Shown here one piece after another: positions 28,901-62,755 of a DNA stretch of 64,000 nt; the stretch's first letter is position 1, and the number at the start of each line of letters is the position of its first letter. A program made the translations under genes and the position numbers. The notes below the pieces were generated by a model. That model searched no databases. It was not told the origin of the DNA and saw only the letters and a program-made list of their open reading frames with translations. Where the stretch lies: positions 1-64,000 of the forward strand of contig JBHGAY010000029.1 in NCBI GenBank assembly GCA_041946735.1, given 5' to 3'. The DNA is from Candidatus Eiseniibacteriota bacterium. GTDB taxonomy: Bacteria; Eisenbacteria; RBG-16-71-46; CAIMUX01; VGJL01.

Positions 28901-29051
28901 CGCACCCGTGGCAGGTCATCCCTTCGACGCGGACGTGGATCGTCTTCACCGGGGCAGCGGCCTGGTCCGCCGTTGCCGCATCGACCCGTCCCTGTCGATC
29001 GTTCGCTTCGTTCCCCGTCACCGGGACACCCCCCGTTCCTGCGGATCTCAT
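25977..29051 (-). CDS. copA: Cu(I)-translocating P1B-type ATPase with three N-terminal HMA domains
   Basis: [53 protein letters not shown] and MAMSS. ATGA overlap with cusA. Confidence 0.95.
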
Positions 29052-33268: not shown

Positions 33269-34926
33269 TGCTGGTGCCCGCCCTGGCCGCCGCCGTCGGC
33301 GTCCGGTTGCGTCATGTCCATGTCCGTGTCCATGTCCATGTCCTTGCCCGTCGCCGGCGCGCGGCTGCCGCCCGCGGCACTGCCGCTCGTCCCCGTTCCG
33401 CTCGCGCCGAAGTACGCGCTGCCCGCCGCGGGATTGAGCCGGCTCTCGGCATCCACCAGGAAGGCGCCGGCCGTCACGACGCGATCGCCCGCCCGCAGTC
33501 CCTCGAGGACCGGATAGTAGTCGCCCGCGACCGGGCCGAGCTTCACCTCGACCGCATCGAACGTCCCCGGCTCGCGCTCGAGGTAGACGACCTTCCGTGT
33601 CCCCGTGTCGATCACCGCCGAGCGCGGGACGGTCAGCGTCCCCGCGCCACCCGCCGGAGGAACCTCCTCCTTCACGAGGTCCATCCCGCACAGCGGGCAT
33701 TTGCCGGGACGGTCGGACACCCACTCGGCGTCCATGGGACAGACCCACCGCTCGGTCGCGGCAAGAGCATTCGAAGCAAGCGACGTCGTGGCGGCACCGC
33801 GGCCGCTGCCCGACCCCGCCTCCTCGATCCGGACGTCGACGTAAGCGCCAGGCCGCAGCTCGAGCTGCGGGTTCGGGACGTCGATCCGCAGGCGGACCGT
33901 CCGCGTGGACGACTCGAGAACCGGATAGACGAACGCCACCGTTCCCGCGTACTCGCGATCCGATCCGGACGGGCTCACTGTGACGCGCTGCCCCTGCTTC
34001 ACCTGATCGGCATCCGCCTCGTAGACGAACGCGGTCGCCCAGACGTGCGAGAGGTCGGCGACGGCGTAGAGGTCGCTCCCCTCGCTCACGTATTGCCCGG
34101 GGACCACCTTCTTCTCGGTCACGATCCCGCCGATCGGTGCATAGATCGTCGTCGTCGCAGACGGCTCGCCTCGCGCCTCCAGCGCCCGGATCTGCCGGTC
34201 CTCCATGCCCCACAGCTCGAGCCTGCGCCGGGCGGCGCCGACCAGCGAGGCGGCATCGGCCTGCACCGTCCCGCCCGCGTCCCGCAGCCGTTTCTGCGCC
34301 TGCACCGCGAGCAGGTACTCGTTCTGCGTCGAGATCAGCTCCGGGCTGTAGATCTCAACGAGCGGCGCGCCGGACGCGACCGGCTGGCCGGTGAAGTCGA
34401 CGTGCAGCCTCTCGATCCTTCCGCTTACGCGCGCGCTGATGCGCGCGGTTCGCCGCTCGTCGATCTCGATCGTCCCGACCGTGCGGATCTCGCGCTCGAC
34501 CGGCCGGTAGCCGACCTCGCTCGTCGCGACGTTGCCGAGCTCCATCCTGTACGGCGAGAGCTGCACGCGCGTGATCGTCCCGGACGGAAGCTCGGGCGCC
34601 TCGCCCTTGTGCCGGCGCGCGAGCGGCATCCCGCAGATCGGGCAGTTGCCCGGCGCGTCGCGCACGACGCTCGGGTGCATCGGGCAGTAGTACTCGTACT
34701 CCGACGCCTCGGCGATCGCCGCCTTCGTCGACTCGGGACGGGTCCACCGCTCCCAGTGGTTCGCGATGTTCTCCCAGTTCGCCGCGACGAGACCGGTCAC
34801 GACCATCAGGAAGATGAAGCGAAGCCGCACGTTCAGGATGCGGATCGCCGTCCAGATCTTCCGCCGCCGGCCGCTCTGCTCGCTCGTCATCTGCCCATCC
34901 TTCTTCTCATCCTTCTTCTCATCCAT
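33265..34926 (-). CDS. cusB: CusB-type periplasmic adaptor with two heavy-metal-binding domains
   Basis: YYCPMHP..CPICGMPL, IYSPELISTQNEYL, WVCPMD..CPLCGMDL, FLVDAESRL and a Met/Asp tail. Confidence 0.92.
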   Translation of the reverse strand: MDEKKDEKKDGQMTSEQSGRRRKIWTAIRILNVRLRFIFLMVVTGLVAANWENIANHWERWTRPESTKAAIAEASEYEYYCPMHPSVVRDAPGNCPICGMPLARRHKGEAPELPSGTITRVQLSPYRMELGNVATSEVGYRPVEREIRTVGTIEIDERRTARISARVSGRIERLHVDFTGQPVASGAPLVEIYSPELISTQNEYLLAVQAQKRLRDAGGTVQADAASLVGAARRRLELWGMEDRQIRALEARGEPSATTTIYAPIGGIVTEKKVVPGQYVSEGSDLYAVADLSHVWATAFVYEADADQVKQGQRVTVSPSGSDREYAGTVAFVYPVLESSTRTVRLRIDVPNPQLELRPGAYVDVRIEEAGSGSGRGAATTSLASNALAATERWVCPMDAEWVSDRPGKCPLCGMDLVKEEVPPAGGAGTLTVPRSAVIDTGTRKVVYLEREPGTFDAVEVKLGPVAGDYYPVLEGLRAGDRVVTAGAFLVDAESRLNPAAGSAYFGASGTGTSGSAAGGSRAPATGKDMDMDTDMDMTQPDADGGGQGGHQH

Positions 34927-34929
34927 CTC

Positions 34930-36327
34930 TCAGTCCCTCTCCCCGAGCAGCCGGCGGTCCCCCGCCGCGAGCCGCAAATCGACCAGGCTCTTCGCCTGAT
35001 CGGCGAGCGCCTGCGCGTACCGTGTCTGCGAATCGAAGAGGAAGCGCTGCGCATCGAGCAGCGTCAGGAAGTCCGCCCGGCCGTTCTCGTAGGCTGTCCG
35101 CGCGGATGCGAGCGCCAGATCCGCCTGCGGCAGGATCGTGCCGCGGTACAGCTCGACCGTCGCCCGCTGCGACTCGAGCATTGCCGCCTCCTCGCGCACC
35201 ATCCGGATCGCTTCGTTGCGCGCCTCGGTCTCGCGTCCCTGCGCCGCGGCCAGCTCCGCTTCCGCCTCGCGCCGCGCCGGACCGACCTTCGATCCGCGCC
35301 AGATCGGCAGCGTGACGCCGATCATCCCCATCCAGGAGTCGTCCATCTCCTTGTCGGCCATGTACTCGAGCCCGACGGTGAAGTCGGGCAGGCCGGCCTT
35401 GCGAGCGAGCGCGAGACTCGCGCGACGCGACGCCACCTCGCGGCGTTGCGCGGCCAGCATTGGCTGCTGCTCGAGCGCTTGCGCCTCGAGCAGCTCGATC
35501 GCGGGCGCCGCGATCACCGTCTCCTCGACGCGAGCGACGGGGAGCGGCGCGTCGGCCGGCTGATCGAGGAGCAGGTTCAGCCGCGCGCGGGCGGCGGGAA
35601 TCTGCGCGCGCAGGACGGCGAGACGCGAGTCGATCGACGAGGTCTCCACCATCCCGCGCAGGACGTCCTGCTGCCCGGCGGCACCCACCTCGTAGCGCGA
35701 CCGCGCGACCCCGGCCAGCAGCCTCGTGCTCTCCAGGTTCTGCTCGAGGATGTCGATCGAGCGTTGCAGCGCGTAGAGGTCGTACCAGGCGCGGCGCACG
35801 TCCGCGGCGACTTCGAGCTGCGCGCCGGTCAGCTCCTCGCGCTGCATCGCCGCCATCTCGGCCATCGACCGCCGCATCGCCCCCTGCTTGCCAGGGAACT
35901 CGAACATCTGCGTCACGCCGATCTTCGCCATCGGCGCGTTCGTGGGGCTGGGATTGCGGATCGGGGCGCCTTCGGAGGTGACGCTCAGCATCGGATCGGC
36001 CAGCGCCCCGGCCTGCGGCACCCGCTCCTCGCTCGCCCGCCAGGTCGACTCGGCCGCCTGAATCCGCGGATTGCGCTCGAGCGCGACCCGGACCAGGGAG
36101 TCGAGGACCGCCTCGGAGGAGACCGGGGCGGGCGCGGGGCTAGCGGGTGGCGGCTGCACCGCCTCGGTCGGGGTCTGGGCGACAACCGAGGTCTGGGCGA
36201 CAACCGGGGTCTGGGCGACGACCGAGGTCTGGGCGACGACGACGCCGGCCGGAGTCACCGCCGGGAGGACGAGAAGCCCGAGGCCAAGGAGCCGCTTCAC
36301 GGCTTGTCGTGGGATGGGATTGCGCAT
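34930..36327 (-). CDS. cusC: TolC/CusC-family outer-membrane efflux protein (alternative GTG start at 36300)
   Basis: ALERNPRIQAA, QAGALADP, QMFEFPGK and AYENGRADFLTLLDAQR. First gene of the cus operon. Confidence 0.88.
   Translation of the reverse strand: MRNPIPRQAVKRLLGLGLLVLPAVTPAGVVVAQTSVVAQTPVVAQTSVVAQTPTEAVQPPPASPAPAPVSSEAVLDSLVRVALERNPRIQAAESTWRASEERVPQAGALADPMLSVTSEGAPIRNPSPTNAPMAKIGVTQMFEFPGKQGAMRRSMAEMAAMQREELTGAQLEVAADVRRAWYDLYALQRSIDILEQNLESTRLLAGVARSRYEVGAAGQQDVLRGMVETSSIDSRLAVLRAQIPAARARLNLLLDQPADAPLPVARVEETVIAAPAIELLEAQALEQQPMLAAQRREVASRRASLALARKAGLPDFTVGLEYMADKEMDDSWMGMIGVTLPIWRGSKVGPARREAEAELAAAQGRETEARNEAIRMVREEAAMLESQRATVELYRGTILPQADLALASARTAYENGRADFLTLLDAQRFLFDSQTRYAQALADQAKSLVDLRLAAGDRRLLGERD
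36169..36240 (-). repeat. 18-bp tandem repeat x4 encoding VVAQT(S/P) at the CusC signal-peptide end
   Basis: cg(g/a)ggtctgggcgac(a/g)ac x4 on the + strand. Confidence 0.9.
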
Positions 36328-36341
36328 CGCAGGGCTCCTCA

Positions 36342-36357
36342 CGCAGGAGCCATGCCA
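36342..36357 (-). promoter_or_regulatory. sigma54 -24/-12 promoter of cusCBA-copA
   Basis: TGGCATGGCTCCTGCG (GG-N10-GC). Confidence 0.65.
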
Positions 36358-36471
36358 CTTCCCCGCTACCTGCCGGCCCGTCGATGCGATCGCTAAGAGG
36401 ACAGCCCGCAATCATTTGCACCACGCACACCAGCCGAACGACCCGCGCGCTCCCGCGCCTCGCCGCCCACC

Positions 36472-36518
36472 TGAAGAAACCTCTTCACCGCCGAGCGTGG
36501 GGTGGAGAATATTCTTCG
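36472..36518. promoter_or_regulatory. Paired palindromic enhancer (UAS) sites
   Basis: TGAAGA-AACC-TCTTCA (36472-36487) and TGGAGA-ATAT-TCTTCG (36503-36518), 31 bp apart. Confidence 0.6.
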
Positions 36519-37679
36519 ATGGCTGGCATCGCATCGGACATCCGCGCGGAACGCCTCGCAGGGAGGCGAGCTGCCGCTTCCTGGGGCTACGATCTCGCGA
36601 TCGCCGCCGCGATTCTGGCGATCACCGCCCTCCACTACACGACCGGCGTCCACGCCCACCAGCTCCACGACATCTACCGCCGGCTCTACTACCTGCCGAT
36701 CATCCTCGCCGCATTCCACCGAGGACTGCGGGGCGGGCTGATCGCGGCCGTCTTCGTCTGCGCCATCTACTTCCCGCACGCGTTCCTCCCGAGCGTCCTC
36801 GGCCGAATGGCGCACGATCCTGCGACACCGACGCAAAAGGTGCTCGAGATGTTCCTCTATCTCGTGGTCGGCGGCCTGACCGGATTCCTCGTGTCTCGCC
36901 TTCAGGGGACGCAGCGCGCCCTCGAGACGACGGCCGGCGAGCTGCGCGAGAGCCTCGATCACCTACGCAGCGCCGAGGAGCAGCTCGTCCAGAGCGCCCG
37001 GCTCGCGGCTGTCGGCCATCTCTCCGCCGGCCTCGCCCACGAGATCCGCAATCCTCTCGCCTCGATCAAGGGCTCGGCCGAGATCCTCGCCGACGATTTC
37101 CCCGCCGAGCATCCCAAGCGGCGGCTGCTGCAGGTGCTGATCGACGAGTCGGTGCGGCTGAACGGCGTGCTGTCGCGCTTTCTCGCGTTCGCACGCCCGC
37201 GTCCGCTCGAACGCCGTCTCTTCGAGCTGGAGGACGAGCTTCGCACCGTGGTGCAGATGATGCAGGACCGCGACGACACTCGCTCGATTCGCTTCCATCT
37301 CCATTCCTGCGGGACGCCCACCGTCCGGATCTACGCGGACCGGGAGCAGCTCCGGCAGGTGCTGCTGAACGTCCTGCTCAATGCGGCGCAGGCGTCGGCC
37401 CCGGCGGGGCAAGTCGCCGTGAGCTGCGCCCGCGCGGACGGCGTCTGCCACGTCCGCGTCCACGACTCGGGCCCCGGTTTCTCGCCCGACGCGCTCGCGA
37501 ACCTCTTCACTCCATTCTTCACGACGAAGACGGAGGGGACCGGGCTCGGCCTCGCGCTCTCGCATCGCATCATCGAGGCGCACGGCGGGACGATCACCGG
37601 CGCCAACGATCCGGCCGGCGGCGGGATCGTCGAGATCTCGCTCCCGATCGAGGAGCGCAATCAAGGCGGAAAGGCCTGA
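36519..37679 (+). CDS. Sensor histidine kinase with His-rich intramembrane input
   Basis: LHYTTGVHAHQLHDIYRRLYYLPII, H-box LAHEIRNPL, N-box NVLLNAAQA, DSGPG, FFTTK and GTGLGL. Confidence 0.92.
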   Translation: MAGIASDIRAERLAGRRAAASWGYDLAIAAAILAITALHYTTGVHAHQLHDIYRRLYYLPIILAAFHRGLRGGLIAAVFVCAIYFPHAFLPSVLGRMAHDPATPTQKVLEMFLYLVVGGLTGFLVSRLQGTQRALETTAGELRESLDHLRSAEEQLVQSARLAAVGHLSAGLAHEIRNPLASIKGSAEILADDFPAEHPKRRLLQVLIDESVRLNGVLSRFLAFARPRPLERRLFELEDELRTVVQMMQDRDDTRSIRFHLHSCGTPTVRIYADREQLRQVLLNVLLNAAQASAPAGQVAVSCARADGVCHVRVHDSGPGFSPDALANLFTPFFTTKTEGTGLGLALSHRIIEAHGGTITGANDPAGGGIVEISLPIEERNQGGKA

Positions 37680-37692
37680 GGACCAGAGCGCC

Positions 37693-39114
37693 ATGGCCAG
37701 AATCCTCCTGATCGACGACGACCCGAGCTTTCGCGAGGTCCTGTCCTTCACCCTCGGCGAGGCCGGGCACGAGGTGGAGGCGATCGGCGACGGGCGCAAG
37801 GCGGTCTCGCTGCTCTCGAGCTTCCGTCCCGACGTCGTCCTGACCGACCTCAAGATGCCGGGGATCGACGGCATGGAGGTCCTGCGGCGCGTGACCGAGG
37901 CGGACGCGACCGTGCCGGTGATCCTGCTGACCGCCTTCGGGACGATCGAGGCAGCGGTCGAGGCGATGAAGGCCGGCGCCCACCACTACCTGACCAAGCC
38001 CTACAACCGCGACGAGCTGAAGCTCGCCGTCGCGCAGGCGCTCGAGTGGCGGCGCCTCCAGAAGGAGAACCGCGAGCTTCGCCATCGCCTGCGCGAGCGG
38101 GTCCGCGAGGACGAGGTGATCCATGCGTCCGAGGCGATGACGCGGATCCTCGAGATGGCGCGGCGCATCGCGCCGACCGACGCCAACGTCCTCCTGACCG
38201 GCGAGAGCGGGACGGGCAAGGAGGTCATCGCCCACTCGCTCCACGCCTGGTCGGACCGCTGGGAGGGGCCGTTCGTCGCCGTCAACTGCGCCGCGATCCC
38301 GAAGGACCTCCTCGAGTCGGAGCTGTTCGGTCACGTGCGCGGAGCCTTCACCGGGGCGACCAAGGACAAGCAGGGGAAGTTCCAGCGGGCCGACGGCGGG
38401 ACGCTCTTCCTCGACGAGATCGCCGATCTTCCGGCCGACATGCAGACGAAGCTCTTGCGCGCGATCGAAACGCGTCAGATCGACGTCGTCGGCGGGACGC
38501 ACCCGGTCCACGTCGACGCGCGCCTGATCGCCGCGACGAACGCGGACATCGAGGCGCGCGTGCGCGACGGCAGCTTCCGCAGCGACCTTTACTACCGGCT
38601 CGACGTGATACGCATTCACATTCCGCCGCTGCGCGAGCGACCCGACGACATCCCGGCGCTCTGGGAGCACTTCGTGCGTCGCTTTGCCGGGCCGAGCGAA
38701 GCGGTGCGCACGAGCCCGGAGCTGATGCGCGAGCTGATGCGGCGGCCCTGGCCCGGCAACGTGCGCGAGCTTGCGAACGTCTGCCAGCGGATGGTCCTGT
38801 TGCGGCGCGGCGACACACTCACCCTGGACGATCTTCCGGTGGGACGAACGGGCGAAGTACCGCTTCCCATCGCCGGCGAGGCGAATGAGGCGACGGCGGA
38901 GGGCGTGCCTCCTGCTCGTGCCGGCGAATCGACGATCGCGGACGCGCTTCTTCGCGAGCTTCCCGAGGACCGGCTCCCGCTGATCGAGCTGGAGCGCGAG
39001 GTGATCGTCCGCGCGCTCGCGAAGCATGGCGGGAATCGGACGCGCACCGCGGAATACCTCGGGATCCCGCGCCATGTCCTCCTCTATCGTCTGGAGAAGT
39101 ACGGGATCGCGTGA
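37693..39114 (+). CDS. sigma54-dependent NtrC-family response regulator
   Basis: Receiver (IDDD, TDLKMPG), GESGTGKE, ESELFGHVRGAFTGA, LFLDEI, WPGNVREL and a Fis-type HTH. Confidence 0.95.
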   Translation: MARILLIDDDPSFREVLSFTLGEAGHEVEAIGDGRKAVSLLSSFRPDVVLTDLKMPGIDGMEVLRRVTEADATVPVILLTAFGTIEAAVEAMKAGAHHYLTKPYNRDELKLAVAQALEWRRLQKENRELRHRLRERVREDEVIHASEAMTRILEMARRIAPTDANVLLTGESGTGKEVIAHSLHAWSDRWEGPFVAVNCAAIPKDLLESELFGHVRGAFTGATKDKQGKFQRADGGTLFLDEIADLPADMQTKLLRAIETRQIDVVGGTHPVHVDARLIAATNADIEARVRDGSFRSDLYYRLDVIRIHIPPLRERPDDIPALWEHFVRRFAGPSEAVRTSPELMRELMRRPWPGNVRELANVCQRMVLLRRGDTLTLDDLPVGRTGEVPLPIAGEANEATAEGVPPARAGESTIADALLRELPEDRLPLIELEREVIVRALAKHGGNRTRTAEYLGIPRHVLLYRLEKYGIA

Positions 39115-46120: not shown

Positions 46121-48442
46121 ATGATTCCCTACCGGCTGCCCGCAGGCGCGCGTCTGTCCGCTCGCACGGCGCCGCGCGCGTTCCTCCCGCTCCAGCTCCA
46201 GCTCCGGCTCCAGCACCCGCTCCTGCTCGCCGTCTGCGCGACGCTCGTCCTCCTGCTGCTCGACCCCGTCACAGCCGCCTCCGCCGCGGCCGAACGCTTC
46301 TATCCCGCGCGGTTCTATCCCGCGGCCCCCGACACGGGCAGCGCGGTCGCGATCCCTCTCGCGCCCGGCGAATCGACCGGCCTCCTCCTGCTGACCCCTT
46401 CGCCGTCCGGCGGGACGGTCCTCGCCCGCGTCCTGGACGAGTCCGCGGAGCCGATCCCCGGCGTCCTCGTGGAAGCGCGCACCGGACGGTTCGCCTCCTA
46501 CGGACTGACCGACGCCGAAGGGAACGTCCGCGTCGAGGGAGTGCCGGCCGGCCAGGTGGTCCTTCGCTCACGCCCCGATGATCCGCGCAGTCTGACCGGC
46601 GCCTGGGCGATCCGCTACGCACCCGGCACCGCGGACTCGGCGCAGGCGCTCCGCCTCCCGCTCGCCGATGGCGGCACGGCGGACTTCGGGAACGTCACGC
46701 TCCCCGCCGCCGGACGCATCAAGACGCGCGTCGTCCACGGCGACGGCGCCGCCTGGGCGGACATCCCGGTCGTCCTGCGCTCGGTCGACGATCAGGACTT
46801 CCGGCGGGTCGCGCGCACCGGCGAGGAAGGGAAGGTCACCTTCGCCGGCCTCGAGCCCGGCAGCTACCGGCTCTGGGCCGACATGCGCGGCACGCCGGCG
46901 ATCACCGAGGCGTGGGACGGCACGCGCGACACGCTCGCCTCCGCGCCGATCGAGGTCGCTCGCGGGAGCCTGATCGGCGCCGACTCGGAGATCGCTCCCG
47001 ACCTCGGCGCCTCGATGATCGGCGTCGTCCGCAACGAAGACACCGGCGAAGGGATCGCCGGCCTCGAGGTGCGTGTCTTCGACGCCGGCGACCCGGCCCA
47101 CTACCGCTCCTTCACGACCGACGAGCTTGGCTACTACGTCGCGGACGGCCTGGCGACCGGCTCGTACAAGGTCTACGCGCCCGCCGTCCGCCGCTGGCAC
47201 CCGTCCGCCGACACCTGGGGACGCGCGCGCGCCGTCGCCCTCGTCGAGCCGGAGGTCCGCTACGGCGTCGACGTCCGCGGCCGGCCCGAGTCTCCCTGCC
47301 AGCTCGCCCCGGCCGCCTCGGCCTACGTGATGGGGTTCGTCCGCGCGGACTTCTCGATCCTCTCGAGCGCGGCGGTCCGCGTCTTCAACGACACCGACAC
47401 GCTCGAGACCGCCGTCACCGCGCAGGACTTCTACGTAGTCAGCTGCCTGCCTCCCGGCTCCTACCGGGTCGCGTTCCTTCCCAAGGGACGCTACCGGACC
47501 CAGTACTGGCGCTACGCCGAGGGCATCGAGGACGCGACGGTGATCACCGCGACGGCCGGCGACACGACCGGCGGCATCAACTTCGAGCCCGAGAAGGGGG
47601 TCGTGATCGAGGGACAGGTGGCGGAGGCGGGATCTGGCCAGCCGATCGCCGGCGCGCCGGTCCTAGCATTCCTGCGCGAGCCCGGGAGCCCGCTCGCCCT
47701 TCGCGGCCGCACGGACGAGGGCGGCAACTTCCGCTTCGATACGCTCCCTGACGGCAGCGGCGTCCCGGCCGGCGAATGGATCGTCGGCGTCGACTCGACG
47801 TTGCTTCGCACGCTCGATCCGACGCCGGTCGTCGAGGTGGGGCTGGCGGCGAAGCGGCAGGCGCGCGGCGCGGTGCGTCTCACGTTCCGGCTCCCCGAGT
47901 CGCTCACGATCGAGGACTGGAAGCTGGAACGCCGGCGGGAAGGTGCGTCAGGGGATGGCGCCGAGGCGGTGCGCATCGCCGGCGCCGCCGATCATCCGGA
48001 TGGGACGCATGCGCGCGAGTGGATCGATCGCGACGCGCCGAACAGTCCCGCCTCGTACCGACTGTCCGCGCTGTTCACCGGCTCCGACGACGGCTGGATC
48101 GCGTCCGAATGGGTCGAGGTGAGCGGCGCGCGAGGAGCAGGCGCCGGCGCGCTCGCCCCGGCCGCCGGGTCCTGCCGCCCGCAACCGTGGGACGGACGAT
48201 CGCGGCTCTGGCTCCCCTTCGATCCCGCGCCGGGCGCCGCGGTCACGGTCTTCCGCATCGATGGCGCGCGCGTGGGCATGCTCGAGGAGGACGGCGCGAT
48301 CACCGCCACCGCCGACGGCGAGGAGCCCCGCTACCGCCTCGCGAGCGGCGGGGCGCGCCTCCCCGCCGGCGTCTACTTCGTCCGTGCGCTCGATCGCGCA
48401 GGCCGCCCGCACACCGCCCGTCTCGTCGTGGAGCGGCGATGA
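46121..48442 (+). CDS. Secreted protein with several carboxypeptidase-regulatory-like Ig domains and a C-terminal FlgD/CTD-like segment
   Basis: Signal peptide, repeated TD.EG.....GL.PG.Y units, and terminal LPAGVYFVRA..TARLVVER. Confidence 0.7.
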   Translation: MIPYRLPAGARLSARTAPRAFLPLQLQLRLQHPLLLAVCATLVLLLLDPVTAASAAAERFYPARFYPAAPDTGSAVAIPLAPGESTGLLLLTPSPSGGTVLARVLDESAEPIPGVLVEARTGRFASYGLTDAEGNVRVEGVPAGQVVLRSRPDDPRSLTGAWAIRYAPGTADSAQALRLPLADGGTADFGNVTLPAAGRIKTRVVHGDGAAWADIPVVLRSVDDQDFRRVARTGEEGKVTFAGLEPGSYRLWADMRGTPAITEAWDGTRDTLASAPIEVARGSLIGADSEIAPDLGASMIGVVRNEDTGEGIAGLEVRVFDAGDPAHYRSFTTDELGYYVADGLATGSYKVYAPAVRRWHPSADTWGRARAVALVEPEVRYGVDVRGRPESPCQLAPAASAYVMGFVRADFSILSSAAVRVFNDTDTLETAVTAQDFYVVSCLPPGSYRVAFLPKGRYRTQYWRYAEGIEDATVITATAGDTTGGINFEPEKGVVIEGQVAEAGSGQPIAGAPVLAFLREPGSPLALRGRTDEGGNFRFDTLPDGSGVPAGEWIVGVDSTLLRTLDPTPVVEVGLAAKRQARGAVRLTFRLPESLTIEDWKLERRREGASGDGAEAVRIAGAADHPDGTHAREWIDRDAPNSPASYRLSALFTGSDDGWIASEWVEVSGARGAGAGALAPAAGSCRPQPWDGRSRLWLPFDPAPGAAVTVFRIDGARVGMLEEDGAITATADGEEPRYRLASGGARLPAGVYFVRALDRAGRPHTARLVVERR

Positions 48443-51264
48443 GCGCGCGGACCGATCTCCCGTCGGTCCTCACGAGAGCGCTGCTCGCGGCTGCCTCGCC
48501 GCGCATCGGAGAAGCTTCGGCGCCCGGTCCGTCCCGCGATCTCTTCCCGCGCTCCTCGGTCCCCGATGCCGGCTCCTTCGATCTCGCTCACCTCTCCACG
48601 CAGTCCCACCGGCTCCTCGCCGATCTGATCACGCTGCTCCTGCTCGAGCTGGAAGGACTGGTCACCTCGCCGCTGAACAGCCGCGCGCGCGCCCGCCTCC
48701 GCCTCGGCGCTCCGTCGCGCAGCCGCGTCCTCGCCGAGTGGCGCTCCCCGCTCGAGCCGGAAGCCCCGGCGAGCCTCTTCGAGCCGCCCGACCCGGGCGA
48801 GAGCCCGGCCGGCTTCGATCCCACGATCGCGCGCGACCCCGAAGCCTTCTACCGCCGCCTGCTCCTGGCCACACGCGAGACGGCCGCCTCGCTCTCCCTC
48901 GCTCCGTCCGCCGTCGAGGAGATGATCCGGTGGCTGCTGCCGATCATCGCGCGCTGTGATCCCGAGGACGATCCGGTGGGATGGATCCACGCGCACGAGC
49001 AGCGCCACGCGCTCGTGCGCGGGCCGGGCAACCGCCTCCGCTTCCAGGTGGACCGGGATCGCGGCCGGAGCCACGGGGTCCTCTACACGCCGCCGCCGCT
49101 CACCGAGGCGCTCGTCGAGTCGATGCTCCACCACTGGGCCTGCGGCGGGAACGGCGGGGAACGGCCGGCGGCCGGGCTGTTCGATCAGGCGAGCGCCGAT
49201 CTCTCCGGCGGTGCCGCCGGAGCCGCCGGACCCACCGGACCTGCCGGACCTGCTGGACCCACCGGACCTGCCGGACCTGCGGCGAGCGAAGCGCGGCCCG
49301 CCGGCTTACCTCCACCGCCCGGCCCGATCCCGACGATCCTCGATCCCTCCTGCGGATCGGGACAGTTCCTCCTCTCGCTCGCGCGCCGCCTGCTCGCCGG
49401 CCGCTCCGCGCGCCCCGAGGAGATGCTCGCCGTCTTCCAGTCGATGCACGGCGTCGACATCGACCTGCGCGCCGCCTCGCTCGCCGCCCTGAACCTCTCC
49501 CTCCAGGCGGTGCGCGCGCTCTCGCGTTCGCAAGGGGTGGAGGGGCGGGTCGTGGCGCAGTGGCTGGGCGAGCGGCTCGGCCCCGGATTCCCCTGGTTCC
49601 TCGGGACGCAGATCCATCGCGGCAACGCGCTCCTGCTCGCGAGGACGATCGATGGCGACCGCTTCCTCTGGACGGAGCGCTTCGCCTCGATCTTCACGGG
49701 CGAACGCCCCGGGTTCGACCTGGTCGTCGGCAATCCGCCCTGGGTCTCCTACGGACTGCGGGACCGCGAAGGCGTCGAGGAGGAGGAGTCCGCCTACCTG
49801 CGCCGCCTCTACACCTTCGGCGCGCAGTACAAGCTCTCGCTCTATCCGCTCTTCATCGAGCTCGCGCTGCGCCTCACCCGGCCCGGCGGGCTGCACGGCT
49901 TCCTCGTCCCCGACTCGTTCTTCACGGGGAAGCACTTCTCGCGGATCCGCGAACACATCCTCGAGACCTGCCGGCCGCTGCTGTTCTGCCTGGTCGAGTC
50001 GGGACCGTGGCCGGGCGTGCACGTCGGCCACACTGCGTACTACTGCGTCCGCCGGCTTCCGGCGCCGGGCGCGGCACGTCCCGTCATGACCCGGGTGCTG
50101 AAGCTCGGCCCGCCCAACCGTCGCGCGGCGAAGCGCACCGGCGCGGGAACGCTCTCGCTCTTCTCATCGTCCGGGGAGGATCGGGAGCGCCCGGTGCTCG
50201 TCGACGTCGATCACCTGCGAAAGACCCCCTACACGGCGTTCCGGATCTATCGTGACGAGGCGGAACGGCAGTTCGTCGAGGACCTCGAGCGCACCCCGCT
50301 CCGCTTCGAGGACGTGATCGAGACCTACTCCGGACTGATCGCGCGCTACGGGCAGGAGAGCGTCACCGGCCTGCGCAAGGGGGAGTTCGTGCTCCGCGAT
50401 CGTGCGGGGCGCCTGATCCTGAGCGATCCGGATCCTTCGGGACGATGGAGGCCCGCGCTCCGATCGGGCTCCGAGGTCGAGCCGTTCCGGACGCGCTGGC
50501 GCGGCGGGATGCTCTACGTTCCCGATGATCACGAGACGCTGCGGAAGGTGTACAAGAGCGGTTTCGATCTCGAGCGCTACGCCGCCGACAAGGTCCTCCT
50601 GCGGCAAACCGGCGACCGCCTCGTCGCCGCGCGCGACGACACGGGCCTCTTGTGTCTGAACAACGTGCACATTCTCGGCTCTCGCGGGAGCCCGCCGATC
50701 GACCCGCGCTTCCTCTGCGGACTGCTGATGAGCGAGCCGATGGAGCGCTACTACCAGATCATCGCGCTCGAGGCCGGGCGCCCGCTCGCGCAGGTCGACC
50801 TGGTCACGGTCCAGAGCCTTCCGTATCCGGCCGACCCGAGCGGCGCCCCTTATGGAGCGGTGCCGCGAAGCGGCGGGAAGGGATCGCGCGGGGGAGCAAA
50901 GGTCGCGGCGCGCGTGGAGGAGCTGCTACGCGCCGGCAAAGCGGACGGCGTCATCGCGCTACTCGAGCGGTCGCTCGGGGGGAGTGGGGCGGGTGTAGGG
51001 GGTGCGGGCGCGGTAGGCGATGGGGCGGGCGAAGCGGGCGGCGCGACCTCCTCCTCCGCCGCCGGTTCGGGCGGCTCCAGCGATGCCAAGGCGCGCGACG
51101 AGGCGACGATCCTCGTCGCGACGATCGTCACGTTCCTGGAGACCGCGGAGGAACCGGCGGCGCGCAAGACCGGCACCGACGCGCTCGACGGCTCGATCCG
51201 CCTGCTGTTCCGCGTGCCGCAGGCGAACTCCTCCGGCGCGCGCGCCGCTCGGCCGTCCGCGTAG
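48439..51264 (+). CDS. N6-adenine DNA methyltransferase, Eco57I/TaqI-like with C-terminal specificity region
   Basis: GVLYTPPPL, ILDPSCGSGQFL, GVDID, FDLVVGNPPW, GFLVPDSF and KVLLRQTG. ATGA overlap with the upstream gene. Confidence 0.85.
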   Translation: MSARTDLPSVLTRALLAAASPRIGEASAPGPSRDLFPRSSVPDAGSFDLAHLSTQSHRLLADLITLLLLELEGLVTSPLNSRARARLRLGAPSRSRVLAEWRSPLEPEAPASLFEPPDPGESPAGFDPTIARDPEAFYRRLLLATRETAASLSLAPSAVEEMIRWLLPIIARCDPEDDPVGWIHAHEQRHALVRGPGNRLRFQVDRDRGRSHGVLYTPPPLTEALVESMLHHWACGGNGGERPAAGLFDQASADLSGGAAGAAGPTGPAGPAGPTGPAGPAASEARPAGLPPPPGPIPTILDPSCGSGQFLLSLARRLLAGRSARPEEMLAVFQSMHGVDIDLRAASLAALNLSLQAVRALSRSQGVEGRVVAQWLGERLGPGFPWFLGTQIHRGNALLLARTIDGDRFLWTERFASIFTGERPGFDLVVGNPPWVSYGLRDREGVEEEESAYLRRLYTFGAQYKLSLYPLFIELALRLTRPGGLHGFLVPDSFFTGKHFSRIREHILETCRPLLFCLVESGPWPGVHVGHTAYYCVRRLPAPGAARPVMTRVLKLGPPNRRAAKRTGAGTLSLFSSSGEDRERPVLVDVDHLRKTPYTAFRIYRDEAERQFVEDLERTPLRFEDVIETYSGLIARYGQESVTGLRKGEFVLRDRAGRLILSDPDPSGRWRPALRSGSEVEPFRTRWRGGMLYVPDDHETLRKVYKSGFDLERYAADKVLLRQTGDRLVAARDDTGLLCLNNVHILGSRGSPPIDPRFLCGLLMSEPMERYYQIIALEAGRPLAQVDLVTVQSLPYPADPSGAPYGAVPRSGGKGSRGGAKVAARVEELLRAGKADGVIALLERSLGGSGAGVGGAGAVGDGAGEAGGATSSSAAGSGGSSDAKARDEATILVATIVTFLETAEEPAARKTGTDALDGSIRLLFRVPQANSSGARAARPSA
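49210..49281 (+). repeat. Collagen-like G-X-Y tract (8 triplets) including a 27-bp duplication
   Basis: GAAGAAGPTGPAGPAGPTGPAGPA, with ggacccaccggacctgccggacctgc at 49228 and 49255. Confidence 0.85.
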
Positions 51265-57469: not shown

Positions 57470-58522
57470 TCACCGGGCCGCTGCGCGCCTCGCTCCCTCG
57501 ATGTCCGCGACCAGCCGCAGCTTCAGGTGCGCCAGCTCCGGCCTCTCCCCGCGAAGCTTCTTGAGCGGATAGCCGCTCGACGAGGGCCCGAACTGGACGA
57601 TCTGGCGCACGCCGAGCGCCGGGAGTTGGAGCAGCGTCTTCATCCAGCGCACTCGATGGAACGTCGTGTCGATCCGGTTGCGGAGCAGGGCCTCGGCGCT
57701 GTCCAACTGCTCGCCGGGATGCAGCGTGGAGAGGAGCGGGATCGAAGGGACGGCAAACGTCCGCGCCTCGAGGTAGCGCTTGTGCGCGTCCCATATGTCC
57801 CGTTCGCGCGCGAGCCTCGGCTCGTGGGCGGCGCAGGGGTTGTTCGAGACGAGCGTCCGGCCTCCGCGCGCCGCCACTTCACGATCCAGCTCGTCGAGCC
57901 TGTGCGGCGGAAGGGCCGCGACGAACAGGTGCGGCGCGTCCGAGACGACAATGTTCGCCTCGAGGGCCGGCGCGAATGTGTTCCAGCTTCCCTCGTCCAC
58001 GTCCTCCACGACCGCCATCCGAAGGCCGATGCGGTCGGACGCCGTGGCGAGGTCGTGCGCCCAACGGTAGGTCAGCGCGGCCGACTCCTCGATCGACAGC
58101 GCTCCGGCGACGCAGTAGGCCGCCAACTCCCCCATGCTTTCGCCGGCCAGCAGGCAGGGAGGGCCATGGTGGTCGAGGAACGCGCGGGACAGCGCCACGC
58201 CGAGCGCCATCTGGGCCACCATGCTTAGCGGGAAGTCCCCGGTCCAGAGCCAGCGGGAGGCGCTCGCCGTTCCGGCGCCCGCGGCGGCGGCCGGCGTCAC
58301 GCGATCGCGCCGCGCTTGCCCTTCCCCGGCCATGAGTCGACGTAGCGATCCGGGAGCGACGCCGAACGGGGCGAGCGTCGCCTCGGCCCGATCGAAGACC
58401 TCGCGATAAGGGCACCGCTCGACGTCCGCTCCCATCCCGGGCCAGTGGTAGCCGCCGGTGGGATAGAGGAGCGCGGTCTCCTCGGCGCGGTGAGGCGCGT
58501 GGCGCGGACGGCTACCGGGCAT
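57470..58522 (-). CDS. Stand-alone FabD-like acyltransferase with variant motifs
   Basis: LLYPTGGYHWPGMG, LAGESMGELAA, CAAHEP, VRW and VQFGPS. Confidence 0.7.
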   Translation of the reverse strand: MPGSRPRHAPHRAEETALLYPTGGYHWPGMGADVERCPYREVFDRAEATLAPFGVAPGSLRRLMAGEGQARRDRVTPAAAAGAGTASASRWLWTGDFPLSMVAQMALGVALSRAFLDHHGPPCLLAGESMGELAAYCVAGALSIEESAALTYRWAHDLATASDRIGLRMAVVEDVDEGSWNTFAPALEANIVVSDAPHLFVAALPPHRLDELDREVAARGGRTLVSNNPCAAHEPRLARERDIWDAHKRYLEARTFAVPSIPLLSTLHPGEQLDSAEALLRNRIDTTFHRVRWMKTLLQLPALGVRQIVQFGPSSSGYPLKKLRGERPELAHLKLRLVADIEGARRAAAR

Positions 58523-58939
58523 GCCGGCGCTCCGCAGGTGGTCTCGCTCCGCTCATCGCAGTCGAACTCCAAGCAAACATCGCCGGGACTCTAGGCCGGT
58601 CCCGAGCGAGGGGCAACGCCTCGTCGGGATTTGGCATTGCATGTAGGATCCCTTGCCGCTTCCTGTATTCCTTCGCGAGTCAGCCACCCGTCGAAGGCCG
58701 TGCTCCCGTCGTCCTGCATTGTGTCTCAGGAAGTCGACAGCTCATTCCTGAAGTTGTCCCCGCGCTCGTCCGCCTGCTTGCACGCCACGTTCGAACTGCC
58801 GGCCGGACAATCCGTTTGGACGAAGCAACGGATCGAGGAACGAGGACCGGATCGCCAGCGAGCGCACCTCGGGCGTGCAAGGCGCGGCAACGGCGCGCGA
58901 AACGGTCGGAAGGGCGCGGCCGATCTCGCCCGACCGGCC

Positions 58940-59382
58940 TGCGGAATGTCGAAGACCCCCATGCGATCCCTCGGTGCGACTCTCCGACGAGTCAGAGCCG
59001 GGAGCTGGATCCGCAGCGCCCGGCTTTCACATGTCGAAGAGCCCTGGGAGATCTCTGGGGGCCGGTCCTCGACATGCTGGAAGGCGACTGCCAGAGTCTC
59101 GCCGGCGGCGTGCAGCACGTCGAAAGGCCGGAGCCGATCTCGGGGTGTCGCCCTACGACATGTTGAATTCCGTCGTTCCATCCCTGGGAGCGGCTCCGCG
59201 ACACGTCAAACTCCGGCGGCGCGCCCGGGAAGCCGGCCTTTCGCATGTCGAAGAGTCGCGGCGAGAGATCGCGGGCGGGCGTCGAGCATGTCGAGGGGCC
59301 GCAGGAGTTAGATCGGCTGCGTGGCTTCGACGCGTCGAACGGCAACCTCGAGACGTCTCCCCTCGCTCTTCGACATTCCGCG
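58940..59382. repeat. Phased array of 11 degenerate 14-bp palindromes (consensus TTCGACATGTCGAA), period 42-44 bp
   Basis: Cores start at 58940, 58983, 59025, 59068, 59111, 59154, 59197, 59239, 59282, 59326 and 59369. The outer units form a 15-bp inverted repeat. Confidence 0.85.
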
Positions 59383-59533
59383 GACCCGTTCCTCGAAATC
59401 CCCGCCCGGAGGGCTGCAAGCGGGTTTCCGGGCGCCAGGGATTCGGGGAGTGGAATCGACGGTTGCCACGCCAGTCGTGTGAACCTCGATGCTCGCGTCC
59501 ATCTCACCAGAAGAGAAGGTCCCGCCCCGCCTC

Positions 59534-62473
59534 TCACCTCACGATCCGCACCGGCACCGTCGCCCGGCCCTCCGGCGACTCCACGCGGAACCAGTACGTG
59601 CCGGTGGCCAGCGGCCGCCCCGCGGAATCCTTCGGCTTCCACGCCCTCTCCTGGATCCCCGCGCGAACGTCCCGCTCGGACCAGAGCGCCACCTGCCTTC
59701 CCTGGACGTCCAGCACGCGCACCCGCACCTCGTCGGCCGGGGCGGGGAGCGCGAGCCTGAGGATCAACTCTCCCGCGGTGGGGTTCGGCCGGACGCGGAG
59801 GCTCAGCCCAGCAGGCGGCTGTCGCATCGCGGACACAGGGCCGTAGCGCTCGATCACGCCGCCCGGCCCGAGCGCCTCGATCACGTACTCGTAGCGCATC
59901 CCCGGCTCCGCTCCGGCGTCCAGGTAGCTCGACTCCTCCGAGGCGGGGAGCACCGAGGAGACGTCGCGCCACTCCCCCTCGCCGGCGCCGCGGCGCAGGA
60001 CGCGGAACCCGGTGAGATCGACCGTCTCCGATGCCCGCCACGTCAGCAGGATCCCATCGTTCTGCGAGATCGCCTGCGGGGCGACCAGCACGGCGGTGTC
60101 TATGTCGGTGACGATGAAGGACCAGCCCTGTGGAGGGTCGCACCATTGCTCCGCGCTGGCGGTCCTCGCCCGCACGCGCCAGTAGTAGGTGTTGAAGAGG
60201 CTGAGCGTTCCGGCGGGGAATGTGTAGGTCGCGCGGGTTCCGGTATCGACCGAGTCCGCGGTCGCGAACAGCGAATCGGTCGACCAGAAGAGCGTGTAGC
60301 GGACCGAGTCCGCCGGGTCGGCCGCATGCGCCGACTCCCATCGCATGAGGGGCTCCGTCGTCAGGAACGAGTCCTCGGACACGGGAACCAGCAGGTTGAA
60401 CGGCGTGATCGGCAGCGGAGGCGTCGGATCGCAAGCGGCCGGATAGAGCTGGAGGAGGCTGCCATCCTCGGTCCGCTGGGAAGCAAAGATGTAGTCATTC
60501 GTCAGCAGCACTTCGTCCGATCCCGACGAGAGGGACCTGCCGCCGATCACGCGAGGGTTCTCCGGATCGGACATGTCCGCGACGTCGAATCCGGCGAAGC
60601 CGAGGGCGGCGCGGTTTCCGAGGATCGAGATGCTGCCGTAGCCGTAGGGCCGGTCGCCCGTGCCGACGAGTCGCGGCCTCCGCGGGGAGCTGACGTCGAC
60701 GATGTAGAAGCCTGATGCGGCCGCGACGTAGACACGGGTGCGCTGGACAGCGACCTTCGCGTCGAAAGTCGTCTGGGTGCCCAGCGGCAGGACCGCCACC
60801 CATTGGGGAGCGCGCGGGTCGCTGATGTCCACCACGTCCAGGTTCACGAGCCCGGTGCTGTGTTCGGCCACGAAGGCATAGGAGCCGGACACGGCGATGG
60901 AACGAGGCTCGTACCCCACCTGCACATCTCCCACAATGCCCGGCTGCGAGGGATCGGACACGTCGAAGACGTAGACCCAGCCGTGGGGCTCGAGCGTGGC
61001 ATACACATAGCTGCCCGATACGGCGACATCGGTCATGTCCCAGTAGGTTTCCGCGCTTCGCCCGAGCAGCTCAAGGTTTCCCGGGTCCGAGACATCCAGG
61101 ACAGTCAGGACGTCCCCATCGGCGACGTACGCGCGGTCTCCCACGACTTCGATCGCCATCACGTATCTCATGGGTGTCCAGCTGTCCAGGACCACCGGCG
61201 ATTGAGGGTTGGTCACGTCGACGCTCGAGAAGGAGGACGCATCGGCTGCATAGGCGACTCCCCCCGCCTCCGCGAGGTCGAGGACGTCGCCGGCAAGAGC
61301 GACCTGCCCCAGCGCCTCGATCGGATCCTCGGCATCGGGGTTCGTCATCTCGACGACCTGAACGCCGAGCGCGTCGTCCGACACGAGGAGGGCGGAGCCG
61401 GCGAGGGCGATCCCCGATGGGCGGCCCCGGATCTTCAGCATCTCCTCCACCGCCGGATTCGCCGGGTCGGTGACGTCCGCGATCATGACGCCCGGATATT
61501 CATAGCTGCTGACGAAGGCCCGGTCGCCCGAGAGGGCGACGCTATGTCCTCCGTGAGAGGGGATCGTCAGCCTTCCCACGATCCCCGGAGCTTGCGGATC
61601 GGTGACATCGATGACGACCAGGCCGCTGTAGTCGGCCACGTAGGCGAGAGACCCTGAAACGACGATGCCGTAAGCCGCTACCGGCAATTCGGGATCCACT
61701 CGGGTGTCGACGGTCGTGACCAGCTCGGGATTCTCGGGATCGCCGACGTCGATCACCGCCAGTCCCGTCTCGATGCAGGCGAGATAGGCATAGCCCCCCG
61801 ACACGGTGACATCGTTGGCAGAGCTTGCCGCGCCTAGCGAGGCTACGATCCGCGGATTCGTCTTGGTGGAGATGTCGAGGATCAGCAGGGACTCGGTGTC
61901 CCAATCGACCGCGATATAGGCATGGTCGCCGGCGACGTCGATGCCATGGCAGCTATGCGGAGTTTCCGCTTGTCCGACCAGCGCGGGGTTCGCAGGATCC
62001 GTCAGGCTCATCACGACGAATCCGGGTTCGTGGCCCACGAGATAGAGGTACTCACCGGACACGGCCACGCCCAGCGTCACGATCTGTAGGGAGACCTGTC
62101 GGACGATCGTGGGATGCTGCGGATCGCTGATGTCGAGGACCTGCATGCCCTCGGAATGATCCGCAACGTAGGCGTACTGCCCGTAGGCAGCGACGTCCCA
62201 CGCGAGGCCCGGCGTGTCGACGCCGCCGGTCCAGCGCCACTGCAGGTAGTCCTCGTAGTCGGCGCAGTCGGTGGACGGTGACGCGGGGGCCGACCAGGCG
62301 GGCGCGGCGGCGGCCGAACGGGGCGCCGCGGCCCATCCCACGCTGACAGCGACGGCTCCGGCGAGCACGAGCAGCGCCAGGCGCCACGAAGATCGACGAC
62401 CTGTTTCTCGAGTTCGAGCGATCGGGAGTGAATCGTGGAGAGGATCGTGGGCGGAAGCGGCCCGTTCCGGCAT
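59534..62473 (-). CDS. Secreted LVIVD-repeat beta-propeller protein with FN3-like and FlgD-Ig-like CTD
   Basis: AAGGAGGT RBS, signal peptide, repeated G.YAYVAD..GL.V.DVSDP..P, YYWRVRA and WKPKDSAGRPLATGTYWFRV. Confidence 0.88.
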   Translation of the reverse strand: MPERAASAHDPLHDSLPIARTRETGRRSSWRLALLVLAGAVAVSVGWAAAPRSAAAAPAWSAPASPSTDCADYEDYLQWRWTGGVDTPGLAWDVAAYGQYAYVADHSEGMQVLDISDPQHPTIVRQVSLQIVTLGVAVSGEYLYLVGHEPGFVVMSLTDPANPALVGQAETPHSCHGIDVAGDHAYIAVDWDTESLLILDISTKTNPRIVASLGAASSANDVTVSGGYAYLACIETGLAVIDVGDPENPELVTTVDTRVDPELPVAAYGIVVSGSLAYVADYSGLVVIDVTDPQAPGIVGRLTIPSHGGHSVALSGDRAFVSSYEYPGVMIADVTDPANPAVEEMLKIRGRPSGIALAGSALLVSDDALGVQVVEMTNPDAEDPIEALGQVALAGDVLDLAEAGGVAYAADASSFSSVDVTNPQSPVVLDSWTPMRYVMAIEVVGDRAYVADGDVLTVLDVSDPGNLELLGRSAETYWDMTDVAVSGSYVYATLEPHGWVYVFDVSDPSQPGIVGDVQVGYEPRSIAVSGSYAFVAEHSTGLVNLDVVDISDPRAPQWVAVLPLGTQTTFDAKVAVQRTRVYVAAASGFYIVDVSSPRRPRLVGTGDRPYGYGSISILGNRAALGFAGFDVADMSDPENPRVIGGRSLSSGSDEVLLTNDYIFASQRTEDGSLLQLYPAACDPTPPLPITPFNLLVPVSEDSFLTTEPLMRWESAHAADPADSVRYTLFWSTDSLFATADSVDTGTRATYTFPAGTLSLFNTYYWRVRARTASAEQWCDPPQGWSFIVTDIDTAVLVAPQAISQNDGILLTWRASETVDLTGFRVLRRGAGEGEWRDVSSVLPASEESSYLDAGAEPGMRYEYVIEALGPGGVIERYGPVSAMRQPPAGLSLRVRPNPTAGELILRLALPAPADEVRVRVLDVQGRQVALWSERDVRAGIQERAWKPKDSAGRPLATGTYWFRVESPEGRATVPVRIVR

Positions 62474-62494
62474 GAAGCACCTCCTTCGGCCATG

Positions 62495-62571
62495 TGCTTT
62501 CGGCTCTCGGCCTCCGGCTTTCTCATCTCGGCCTTCGGCATCCGGCTCCCGGCATCCGGCATCCGGCATTC
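62495..62571. repeat. Heptamer tandem array (11 units, GGCNTYC-like) between the divergent LVIVD genes
   Basis: tgctttc ggctctc ggcctcc ggctttc tcatctc ggccttc ggcatcc ggctccc ggcatcc ggcatcc ggcattc. Confidence 0.75.
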
Positions 62572-62755
62572 GCAAGCGCGGCATCATTCTACGCCCGTGA
62601 AGCGCCGGAACCATCCCGAATCCGCCTCCCGTTCCCGCCGCCCCCGTCGATCGCAGCCCGCTCCCCTGCTATACTTTCACCCGCCTTTGGACCACTGCTC
62701 GTGCGCGTAGGGAATGACGAGGGCTGCCCCGAGGTCGAAAGGAGAGAACCCGATC

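Follow-up and report, generated by a model that had tools for sequence, protein, structure and literature searches.

What would lead a bacterium to line up eleven short palindromes, one every 43 base pairs, in a gap between two genes? The question is raised by a stretch of 64,000 nucleotides (the window) that comprises positions 1 to 64,000 of contig JBHGAY010000029.1, from assembly GCA_041946735.1 of a Candidatus Eiseniibacteriota bacterium, an uncultured organism of soil. An original prediction, made from the letters of this stretch, saw in it a non-coding array of eleven palindromic cores, set in steps of 42 to 44 bp. It proposed that the array is either a platform on which a protein is cooperatively loaded (like a centromere, an iteron or a nucleoid organiser) or a non-CRISPR repeat-spacer RNA. 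Here, the array is confirmed to be real: the block is a non-coding array of eleven 43-base repeats, each bearing a palindrome. The explanation that fits best, to which we give somewhat less than an even chance, is that the array belongs to a dispersed, lineage-specific family of intergenic elements resembling BIME and BOX, with a geometry resembling that of the plasmid centromere sopC, and that it may serve to dock a putative dimeric DNA-binding protein on duplex DNA.

All eleven cores are present (Table 1), each as a string that occurs once within the array, and they follow one another in steps of 43, 42, 43, 43, 43, 43, 42, 43, 44 and 43 bp. Their consensus is TTCGAC-RY-GTCGAA (14 bp; R is a purine and Y a pyrimidine). 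Each 43-bp unit combines two symmetric parts. The first is a 14-bp box with two-fold symmetry, T-N4-C-R-Y-G-N4-A; the second is a smaller palindrome, GATC or GA-N-TC, that stands at a fixed distance from the box. One further unit, degenerate, probably occupies the left end, with its core at position 58898.

The periodicity is well outside what shuffled sequence delivers. At a lag of 43, the array matches itself with a fraction of 0.402, compared with 0.277 +/- 0.022 in 2000 dinucleotide-preserving shuffles (z 5.8). Even when each shuffle is represented by its best lag between 10 and 130, none of the 2000 reaches the value that the window gives at lag 43. The next-strongest lags are 129, 85 and 86. 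Tandem Repeats Finder reports nothing on the array, because its units are too diverged.

This divergence is not, however, that of unrelated sequences. The spacers, which the original prediction called divergent, are 41% identical in pairwise comparison, while base composition leads one to expect 28%, and they are therefore diverged copies of one unit. This bears on the suggestion that the block is a degenerate CRISPR, or some CRISPR-like repeat-spacer array, which has in its favor that short palindromic repeats are regularly interspaced. Its repeats, however, are only 14 bp long and 53-61% identical; its spacers are related to one another and carry the phased GATC described below; Cas1 is absent from the genome and cas genes from the window; and the array has no match in phages or plasmids. 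The probability of a CRISPR origin is, in our judgment, negligible.

The array is also not the residue of a gene. The codon-position GC pattern that is characteristic of the genome appears in no frame; third-position GC is 0.56-0.76 over the six frames, compared with 0.83-0.87 in the two flanking genes. The four open reading frames that overlap the array find no match in Pfam. Further, contigs from the sequencing runs of two other studies, one (X2) covering 59041-59846 and the other (X3) covering 58891-59092, have 0 differences from the array, which is therefore not an artefact of assembly. The contigs of three runs contain no length variant, two of the three covering the array only in part.

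The second palindrome keeps its distance from the box with more precision than one might expect from units so diverged. The centers of all six GATC sites in the window array are exactly 20 bp from the center of a core, an outcome that random placement delivered in 0 of 100000 trials. The phase that the original prediction had pointed out is thus exact. At 59179, on reading the sequence, the site is CATC. An enrichment of GATC in the array was also considered and rejected: its density in the array (12.7 per kb) matches that in the genome (13.2 per kb), and only the phase is special. The genomic density is itself about 4.5 times that expected, by arithmetic from base composition, while CTAG is rare in the genome (0.28 per kb).

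The array was first taken as a single local oddity. It is, however, one of a family. The window is contig C22 of its own genome (G000), which is 94.8% complete. A position weight matrix (PWM) of the core, chained at 43 +/- 1 bp and run over all contigs, scores 83 at the window and 66, 57, 50 and 45 on contigs C24, C56, C46 and C37, against a background of about 12. A sixth array is found on C48. A scan that is blind to sequence, and that collects 258-bp segments having more than 0.42 identity with themselves at a given lag, returned 22 segments above this threshold at lag 43. For comparison, 29 further lags from 25 to 68, multiples of 3 being excluded, gave 1-9 segments each. Reading these candidates gave at least 11 non-coding arrays in G000, with 5 of the 22 segments being coding and a few doubtful. 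The family may be put at about 11-16 arrays, holding some 150 units in total, the latter being a rough estimate rather than a count.

The extents of the arrays, set by autocorrelation, run from about 5 to 18 units, and the notion of a constant size of 11 units was dropped. A chain of any palindromes at 43 bp, again blind to sequence, gave no discrimination in a genome so rich in GC. Separately, strong tandem periodicity at lag 42, with identity of 0.59-0.87, is seen at C11:45097, C5:115726, C16:15479, C4:135863 and C14:94162; these are probably 14-residue coding repeats, distinct from the 43-bp arrays.

The members of the family do not all carry the same box. TTCGAC-RY-GTCGAA is common to C22, C24, C56 and C37. 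On C46, the box is TGTGAC-GT-GTCACG or TGCAGC.., and on C48 it is TGTAGC-AT-GCTACA. The arrays of C6 and C43/C55 have TTCAC-N4-GTGAA together with GAGA-N-TCTC as the second palindrome, and those of C19/C7/C32 have TGTA-N8-TACA together with AGCTCAGCT. Despite these differing boxes, the two dyad centers are 21.5 bp apart in every well-preserved unit. No two arrays of G000 are near-identical, and a collinear order of units between arrays was rejected, as unit variants recur out of order. The genes that flank the arrays are unrelated (a TPR protein, a metallo-beta-lactamase fold, an O-methyltransferase, an AurF-like protein and NadA, among different arrays), and the gene gaps that the arrays occupy are tandem, divergent and convergent. 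Homogeneous arrays are found at the ends of contigs C19, C43, C32, C7 and C55, and probably broke the assembly there.

Two observations by eye concern the surroundings of sister arrays. The 43-bp array at the start of C43 (C43:170-480) continues directly into transposase-like DNA, which we take to resemble the C-terminal part of an IS256-type transposase. At 7100-7160 of C24, downstream of the array and upstream of the next gene, a GG..N..GC motif looks like a sigma-54 promoter with its spacing one base off.

The number of arrays bears directly on the most literal form of the platform hypothesis, in which the array would serve partition as a sopC-type centromere, or replication as an iteron origin, on a replicon that is integrated or was co-assembled. 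The period of 43 bp, the 11-12 units and the palindromic site with its central purine-pyrimidine step all match sopC. There are, however, at least 11 such arrays, and these are on contigs that carry housekeeping genes. Genes for ParA, ParB and Rep are not adjacent to the array; consistent with what the original prediction reported, the 37 open reading frames of the window include no cas, par or rep gene. Two ParB_N genes do exist in the genome (at C56:66.9 kb and C28:15.8 kb), but beside no array. The box differs from the SopB site, the array is without plasmid or phage similarity, and sopC-type centromeres were found only on plasmids of Enterobacteriaceae (PMC3177203). We consider a centromere or origin very unlikely; its iteron version is contradicted by the lack of a rep gene in the window and by the many genomic copies. 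Thus, of the original platform hypothesis, the centromere and iteron versions are contradicted by the at least 11 dispersed chromosomal copies, while a cooperative platform for a protein would remain the best reading.

What, then, is held constant across the family? The answer appears to be geometry. In the six arrays found with the core, the 62 steps between neighboring cores comprise 53 of 43 bp, 8 of 42 bp and 1 of 44 bp (mean 42.89). In five of these arrays, spacers have an identity of 0.41-0.44, compared with 0.28 by chance; the boxes have an identity of 0.53-0.61. Units whose box has decayed still hold register. GATC follows the same rule, with 23 of its 34 sites (in 62 units) at two offsets that are mirror-equivalent. 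Thus, spacing is indeed better conserved than sequence, as had been proposed from the window. Given the general ratio of indels to substitutions, neutral decay to such divergence should introduce several indels per unit. Set against this expectation, the steady spacing leads us to infer that selection operates on spacing.

The arrays share a second feature of geometry, which is that they run in two directions. The original prediction had noticed that GATC changes sides along the window array, standing to the right of the core in left-hand units and to the left of the following core in right-hand units. To follow this in the sister arrays, units were scored for orientation, in leave-one-out fashion, by a measure that had been trained on the asymmetric offset of GATC. 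The resulting strings are >>><>>><<< for C22, >>><<<<<<<>< for C24, ><<<>>>><< for C56, >><<<<<<<>< for C46, >>><><<<< for C37 and >><<<<<<<> for C48. In all six, '>' prevails on the left and '<' on the right; when positions are permuted, 19 of 20000 permutations reach the observed value, although runs of similar neighbors make this null somewhat narrow.

Evidence independent of the orientation score comes from the spacers. Those at opposite ends of an array are more alike inverted than direct, when compared with pairs from the same end (difference 0.057; 291 of 20000 permutations, p about 0.015). Two spacer pairs of the window array, 1 with 8 and 3 with 10, are complementary at 72-79%. Inverted pairs of 20-34 nt join the left and right ends in five of the six arrays, C46 having none of 20 nt or more. 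In the window, units 1 and 11 do form the perfect 15-bp inverted repeat that had been reported (58941-58955 with 59367-59381), and this extends to 34 nt at 76% complementarity; the exact terminal 15-mer is found in the genome only at the two ends of this array. The orientation strings, the inverted spacers and the end pairs together show that the flip in polarity is real and is a trait of the family, and thus that an array is an inverted pair of tandem arms.

Palindromes arranged in this way might, of course, act in RNA rather than in DNA. On this view, the array would act either as one long non-coding RNA with a structure of its own or as linked REP-like hairpins by which the transcripts of its neighbors are stabilized or attenuated. 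Both strands do fold better than their shuffles (the plus strand at -250 kcal/mol, z -5.65; the minus strand at -234.7 kcal/mol, z -3.72), and the terminal inverted repeat closes the predicted fold. Further, when arrays are compared with one another, the arms of their boxes differ but remain complementary (global shuffle z 2.2). However, any dyad-symmetric lattice of DNA must fold well on both strands, and these z-scores do not discriminate between RNA and DNA.

More discriminating is covariation, of which individual arrays show none. The two halves of the same box give a z of -1.1 relative to shuffled partners, and the right half of one box taken with the left half of the next gives 0.36, no better than shuffled. 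At the variable position of the box, pairs of the G-U type (0.31) and of the A-C type (0.34) are equally common. The second palindrome, with its 4+0/1+4 bp, is on inspection unable to form a hairpin. A strand bias was rejected, with the GC skew of the window array being 0.013, and a sequence-only model (R1), built from 38 double units, matches both strands. Rfam returned only chance-level miRNA hits (E at least 0.09, far below gathering scores), a search of 58400-59700 for promoter-like or terminator-like sites came back empty, and arrays are found in convergent and divergent gaps alike, in every orientation with respect to neighboring genes. The public runs listed for this DNA include none of RNA, which weighs on neither side. 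An element acting as RNA is therefore improbable, and the repeat-spacer RNA of the original prediction with it. We read the palindromy, instead, as the symmetry that suits a dimeric protein bound to duplex DNA, and not as a matter of base pairing.

A BLAST search with the window array against 40 relatives delivers matches in its own genome only. The exact box is found in 58 of 206 genomes of the phylum (G000 included), but 0 of 19 loci fetched from the other genomes carry an array; these boxes are single chance or coding sites. The R1 model, which is blind to arrays with other box sequences, was run on 150 further genomes of the class and finds weak matches in 9. Reading 11 loci left 2 genuine 43-bp arrays. 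Both belong to G023, a genome from the same order and another family, which is thus the only 1 of the 150 in which R1 reveals arrays. In 397 kb of G023, the lag scan gives 5 lag-43 windows at 4 loci, compared with 0-3 at other lags, with boxes of other sequence (..GTCGACAT.., ACATGT, CACGTG and GCCATGGC). In 201 kb of G005, from the same family as G000, the scan gives 1 borderline window, whose sequence proved to be a repeat of about 120 bp, and in 274 kb of G027 it gives 1 window, with a 43-bp unit that is not palindromic. What can be said of taxonomic spread thus draws on R1 and on the lag-scanned samples of G004, G005, G023 and G027. The 43-bp lattice is therefore present, in sequences unrelated to each other, in two families of the order or more; it is patchy and turns over quickly.

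The two repeats just mentioned deserve a word in their own right. The one in G005 (L121; contig C1, 7270-7634) is made of long GC-rich hairpins with a period of about 120 bp, lies at a contig end, and belongs to a different class of repeat. The one in G027 (L106; contig C2, 1-215) consists of five near-identical, AT-richer 43-bp units without an evident palindrome, at the start of the contig, and is followed by a repeat of about 61 bp.

In the principal alternative to docking, the arrays are selfish or neutral interspersed repeats without a host function, similar to BOX elements or to MITEs (miniature transposable elements with inverted repeats), with terminal inverted modules placed round a tandem array. 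They would expand by slippage or unequal crossing-over and would then decay, the 43-bp period being inherited from a single ancestral unit. We regard this as possible, if on the unlikely side. The terminal inverted repeats are there; the homogeneous arrays at the five contig ends look "young"; presence and absence differ between congeners; the neighboring genes are unrelated; and unit variants are common to arrays that have no collinear order. Pneumococcal BOX has the same A-B(n)-C build, with 67-637 bp and a variable number of modules (PMC3049150).

Against this, no Y1 transposase was found in the genome. No end of an insertion sequence (IS) matches the terminal 15-mer, the two matches with 1 mismatch being coding sequence and a gene start. 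No target-site duplication is visible at the ends of the array, and no pair of arrays is near-identical. Further, spacers that are only about 41% identical are found in arrays where just 9 of 62 steps depart from 43 bp, each by one base; neutral decay should blur such a pattern, at the general rate of indels mentioned above. It should likewise blur the distance from GATC to box, which in the window is exact at 6 of 6 sites.

Several findings nevertheless count against a docking platform. Both of the G023 arrays that were tested (2 of 2) are absent from the congener G027, where at each of the two loci one flank is homologous (85% and 77% identity) and the other is not. In G004, which belongs to the same family as G000, a 400-kb sample has 0 lag-43 windows. 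Homologues of the acyltransferase-like gene that flanks the window array (44-64% identity) were found at 11 loci, with no array and no shared gene order. This lack of conservation at orthologous loci is as compatible with a selfish or neutral repeat as with a functional one. No binding protein was found, and genes for DNA-binding proteins are not recurrent neighbors of the arrays. Because boxes vary between arrays, and partly within them, one protein would need a loose specificity, or several proteins would be needed. The box, moreover, is not an operator used elsewhere in the genome, nor that of a known regulon; a regulon of single boxes was considered and rejected, as the strong sites outside arrays number 40, of which 26 are coding, compared with 19 when the sequence is reversed as a control. 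Last, the claim that indels are depleted relies on a general ratio, not on a neutral control from the genome itself.

With these points weighed, the docking of a protein on the arrays would work as follows. A period of 42.9 bp corresponds to about four turns of the helix, and would place all of the boxes on one face. Dimers of the putative DNA-binding protein could then dock side by side, cooperatively and from both arms, to form a higher-order complex such as SopB forms on sopC. Such a complex might contribute to local chromosome structure, act as a topological barrier, or titrate the protein. As for origin, an array may have arisen by tandem amplification of a unit together with an inverted duplication, followed by decay through point substitution with spacing retained. 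Between species, arrays would be gained and lost quickly.

The features of the locus are collected in Table 1. The array sits between two genes of the minus strand.

Table 1. Features of the array and its flanks, in positions of the window
Feature	Position	Strand	Remarks
Whole array	58898-59400	.	11 clear 43-bp units, a probable degenerate left unit, plus the terminal inverted repeat's outer parts
Core 1, TGCGGAATGTCGAA	58940-58953		PWM score 16.5; outer (left) half off consensus
Core 2, TCCGACGAGTCAGA	58983-58996		PWM score 11.2
Core 3, TTTCACATGTCGAA	59025-59038		PWM score 20.0
Core 4, CTCGACATGCTGGA	59068-59081		93% complementary to core 9
Core 5, TGCAGCACGTCGAA	59111-59124		
Core 6, TACGACATGTTGAA	59154-59167		Contains the midpoint of the whole array
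Core 7, CGCGACACGTCAAA	59197-59210		
Core 8, TTTCGCATGTCGAA	59239-59252		
Core 9, TCGAGCATGTCGAG	59282-59295		
Core 10, TTCGACGCGTCGAA	59326-59339		Perfect palindrome
Core 11, TTCGACATTCCGCG	59369-59382		Outer (right) half off consensus, mirroring core 1
Left-arm GATC sites (58965, 59008, 59050, 59136)	58965-59139		Centers 20 bp to the right of the left-hand core
Right-arm GATC sites (59267, 59311)	59267-59314		Centers 20 bp to the left of the following core
Terminal inverted repeat, left arm	58922-58955		34 nt, 76% complementary; inner 15 nt perfect
Terminal inverted repeat, right arm	59367-59400		
Spacer 1 with left half of core 2	58956-58988		Complementarity of 79% with 59247-59279 (core 8's right half, and spacer 8); a left-arm unit mirrored in the right arm
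Flanking gene, 350-aa protein, weak acyl-transferase domain match	57470-58522	-	Array 420-860 bp upstream of its start
Flanking gene, 1026-aa LVIVD-repeat protein with FlgD Ig-like C-terminal domain	59534-62614	-	Array starts some 150 bp downstream of the gene's stop codon

Elsewhere in the window, a candidate type IIG restriction-modification enzyme of 1162 aa is encoded on the plus strand at 47776-51264; its domains are an Eco57I-type methylase, N6_Mtase and a TaqI-like specificity domain. A heavy-metal cluster occupies 25977-39114, with a P-type ATPase having three HMA domains and efflux genes resembling those for CusA, CusB and an outer-membrane factor; it is followed on the other strand by a histidine kinase and a sigma-54 response regulator. 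Within this cluster, the open reading frame that runs from the first start (29048-34213) extends into the next gene and has probably been called too long.

Why should arrays of this kind be of interest? Bacterial interspersed repeats, among them REP/BIME, BOX and ERIC, have for the most part been explained as hairpins or as MITEs. Here, what is conserved is geometry, not sequence or base pairing, and among well-studied elements a plasmid centromere alone has this geometry. To find the same geometry a dozen times on the chromosome of a bacterium from a phylum without a cultured member, and again, in other sequences, in a distant relative, points to a new DNA-organizing protein or to a new route for making repeats. 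In practical terms, the sequence-blind lag scan provides a concrete rule by which arrays may be sought, and the 473-bp fragment provides a bait for the binder.

A search of open-access papers and preprints found no description of such chromosomal arrays of 43-bp palindromic units, returning only the paper on sopC (PMC3177203). It is a serious possibility that the four-turn lattice forms a class by itself. One may go further and suppose that four-turn, double-palindrome lattices are an undescribed and widespread class of chromosomal element, about 0.3-0.6 kb in length, with units of 41-43 bp, sites on one face and two converging arms; these would be bound by a putative dimeric protein that is abundant and polymerizes on them into a superhelical complex like that of sopC. 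The complex would be employed many times on each chromosome as a structural or topological landmark, where a centromere is employed once on each plasmid. This larger proposal is speculative, and we would bet against it more readily than for it.

How, then, do the arrays compare with systems already known? The sopC site of plasmid F comprises 12 direct repeats of 43 bp, each having a 16-bp inverted repeat that is bound by SopB; its authors note that 43 bp is four helical turns, which puts the dimers on one face, and relatives of sopC exist with units of 44 and 45 bp (PMC3177203). The present arrays are like it in their period, in having about a dozen units, and in the one palindromic site per unit with a purine-pyrimidine step at its center. 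The sites themselves differ, that for SopB having the consensus TGGGACC-RY-GGTCCCA (16 bp; PMC3177203), where the present box is TTCGAC-RY-GTCGAA (14 bp). In sopC, further, the units are direct and well conserved, and there is one array per plasmid, next to sopAB. Here, at least 11 arrays are dispersed on a chromosome, with converging arms and diverged units, and with no par genes nearby.

The likeness to BIME-2 and REP sequences lies in dispersion between genes and in regularly spaced palindromic units that form a mosaic of variants; BIMEs are, moreover, known sites of protein binding, and the alternating orientation of their REPs gives two kinds of dyad center per period (PMC2817692, PMC3333891). 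REPs, however, form hairpins, are present in more than 100 copies per genome (PMC2817692), and are tied to RAYT (Y1) transposases, whereas here there are only about 11-16 arrays, the genome has no Y1 transposase and the boxes lack the covariation of a hairpin. PF01797, the family to which RAYT/Y1 proteins belong, has 0 matches in G000, while control genomes respond to the same search. An element of the RAYT-dependent REP/BIME type is thus ruled out. Orientation in the present arrays also changes in blocks (">>><<<"), not in alternation from unit to unit as in a BIME, and the period is one of four helical turns.

The boxB module of the pneumococcal BOX element is reportedly 45 bp long. BOX is, like the present arrays, a composite of a few hundred base pairs, in which terminal modules that are inverted and complementary (boxA and boxC) surround a tandem boxB; it is likewise dispersed between genes and turns over quickly (PMC3049150). 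Copies of BOX are, however, near-identical, fold as RNA, and are linked to an IS by the similarity of their terminal inverted repeats (PMC3049150), whereas here all of the arrays differ and no link to an IS was found. The internal units of the present arrays, unlike those of BOX, are themselves palindromic and are phased with the turn of the helix.

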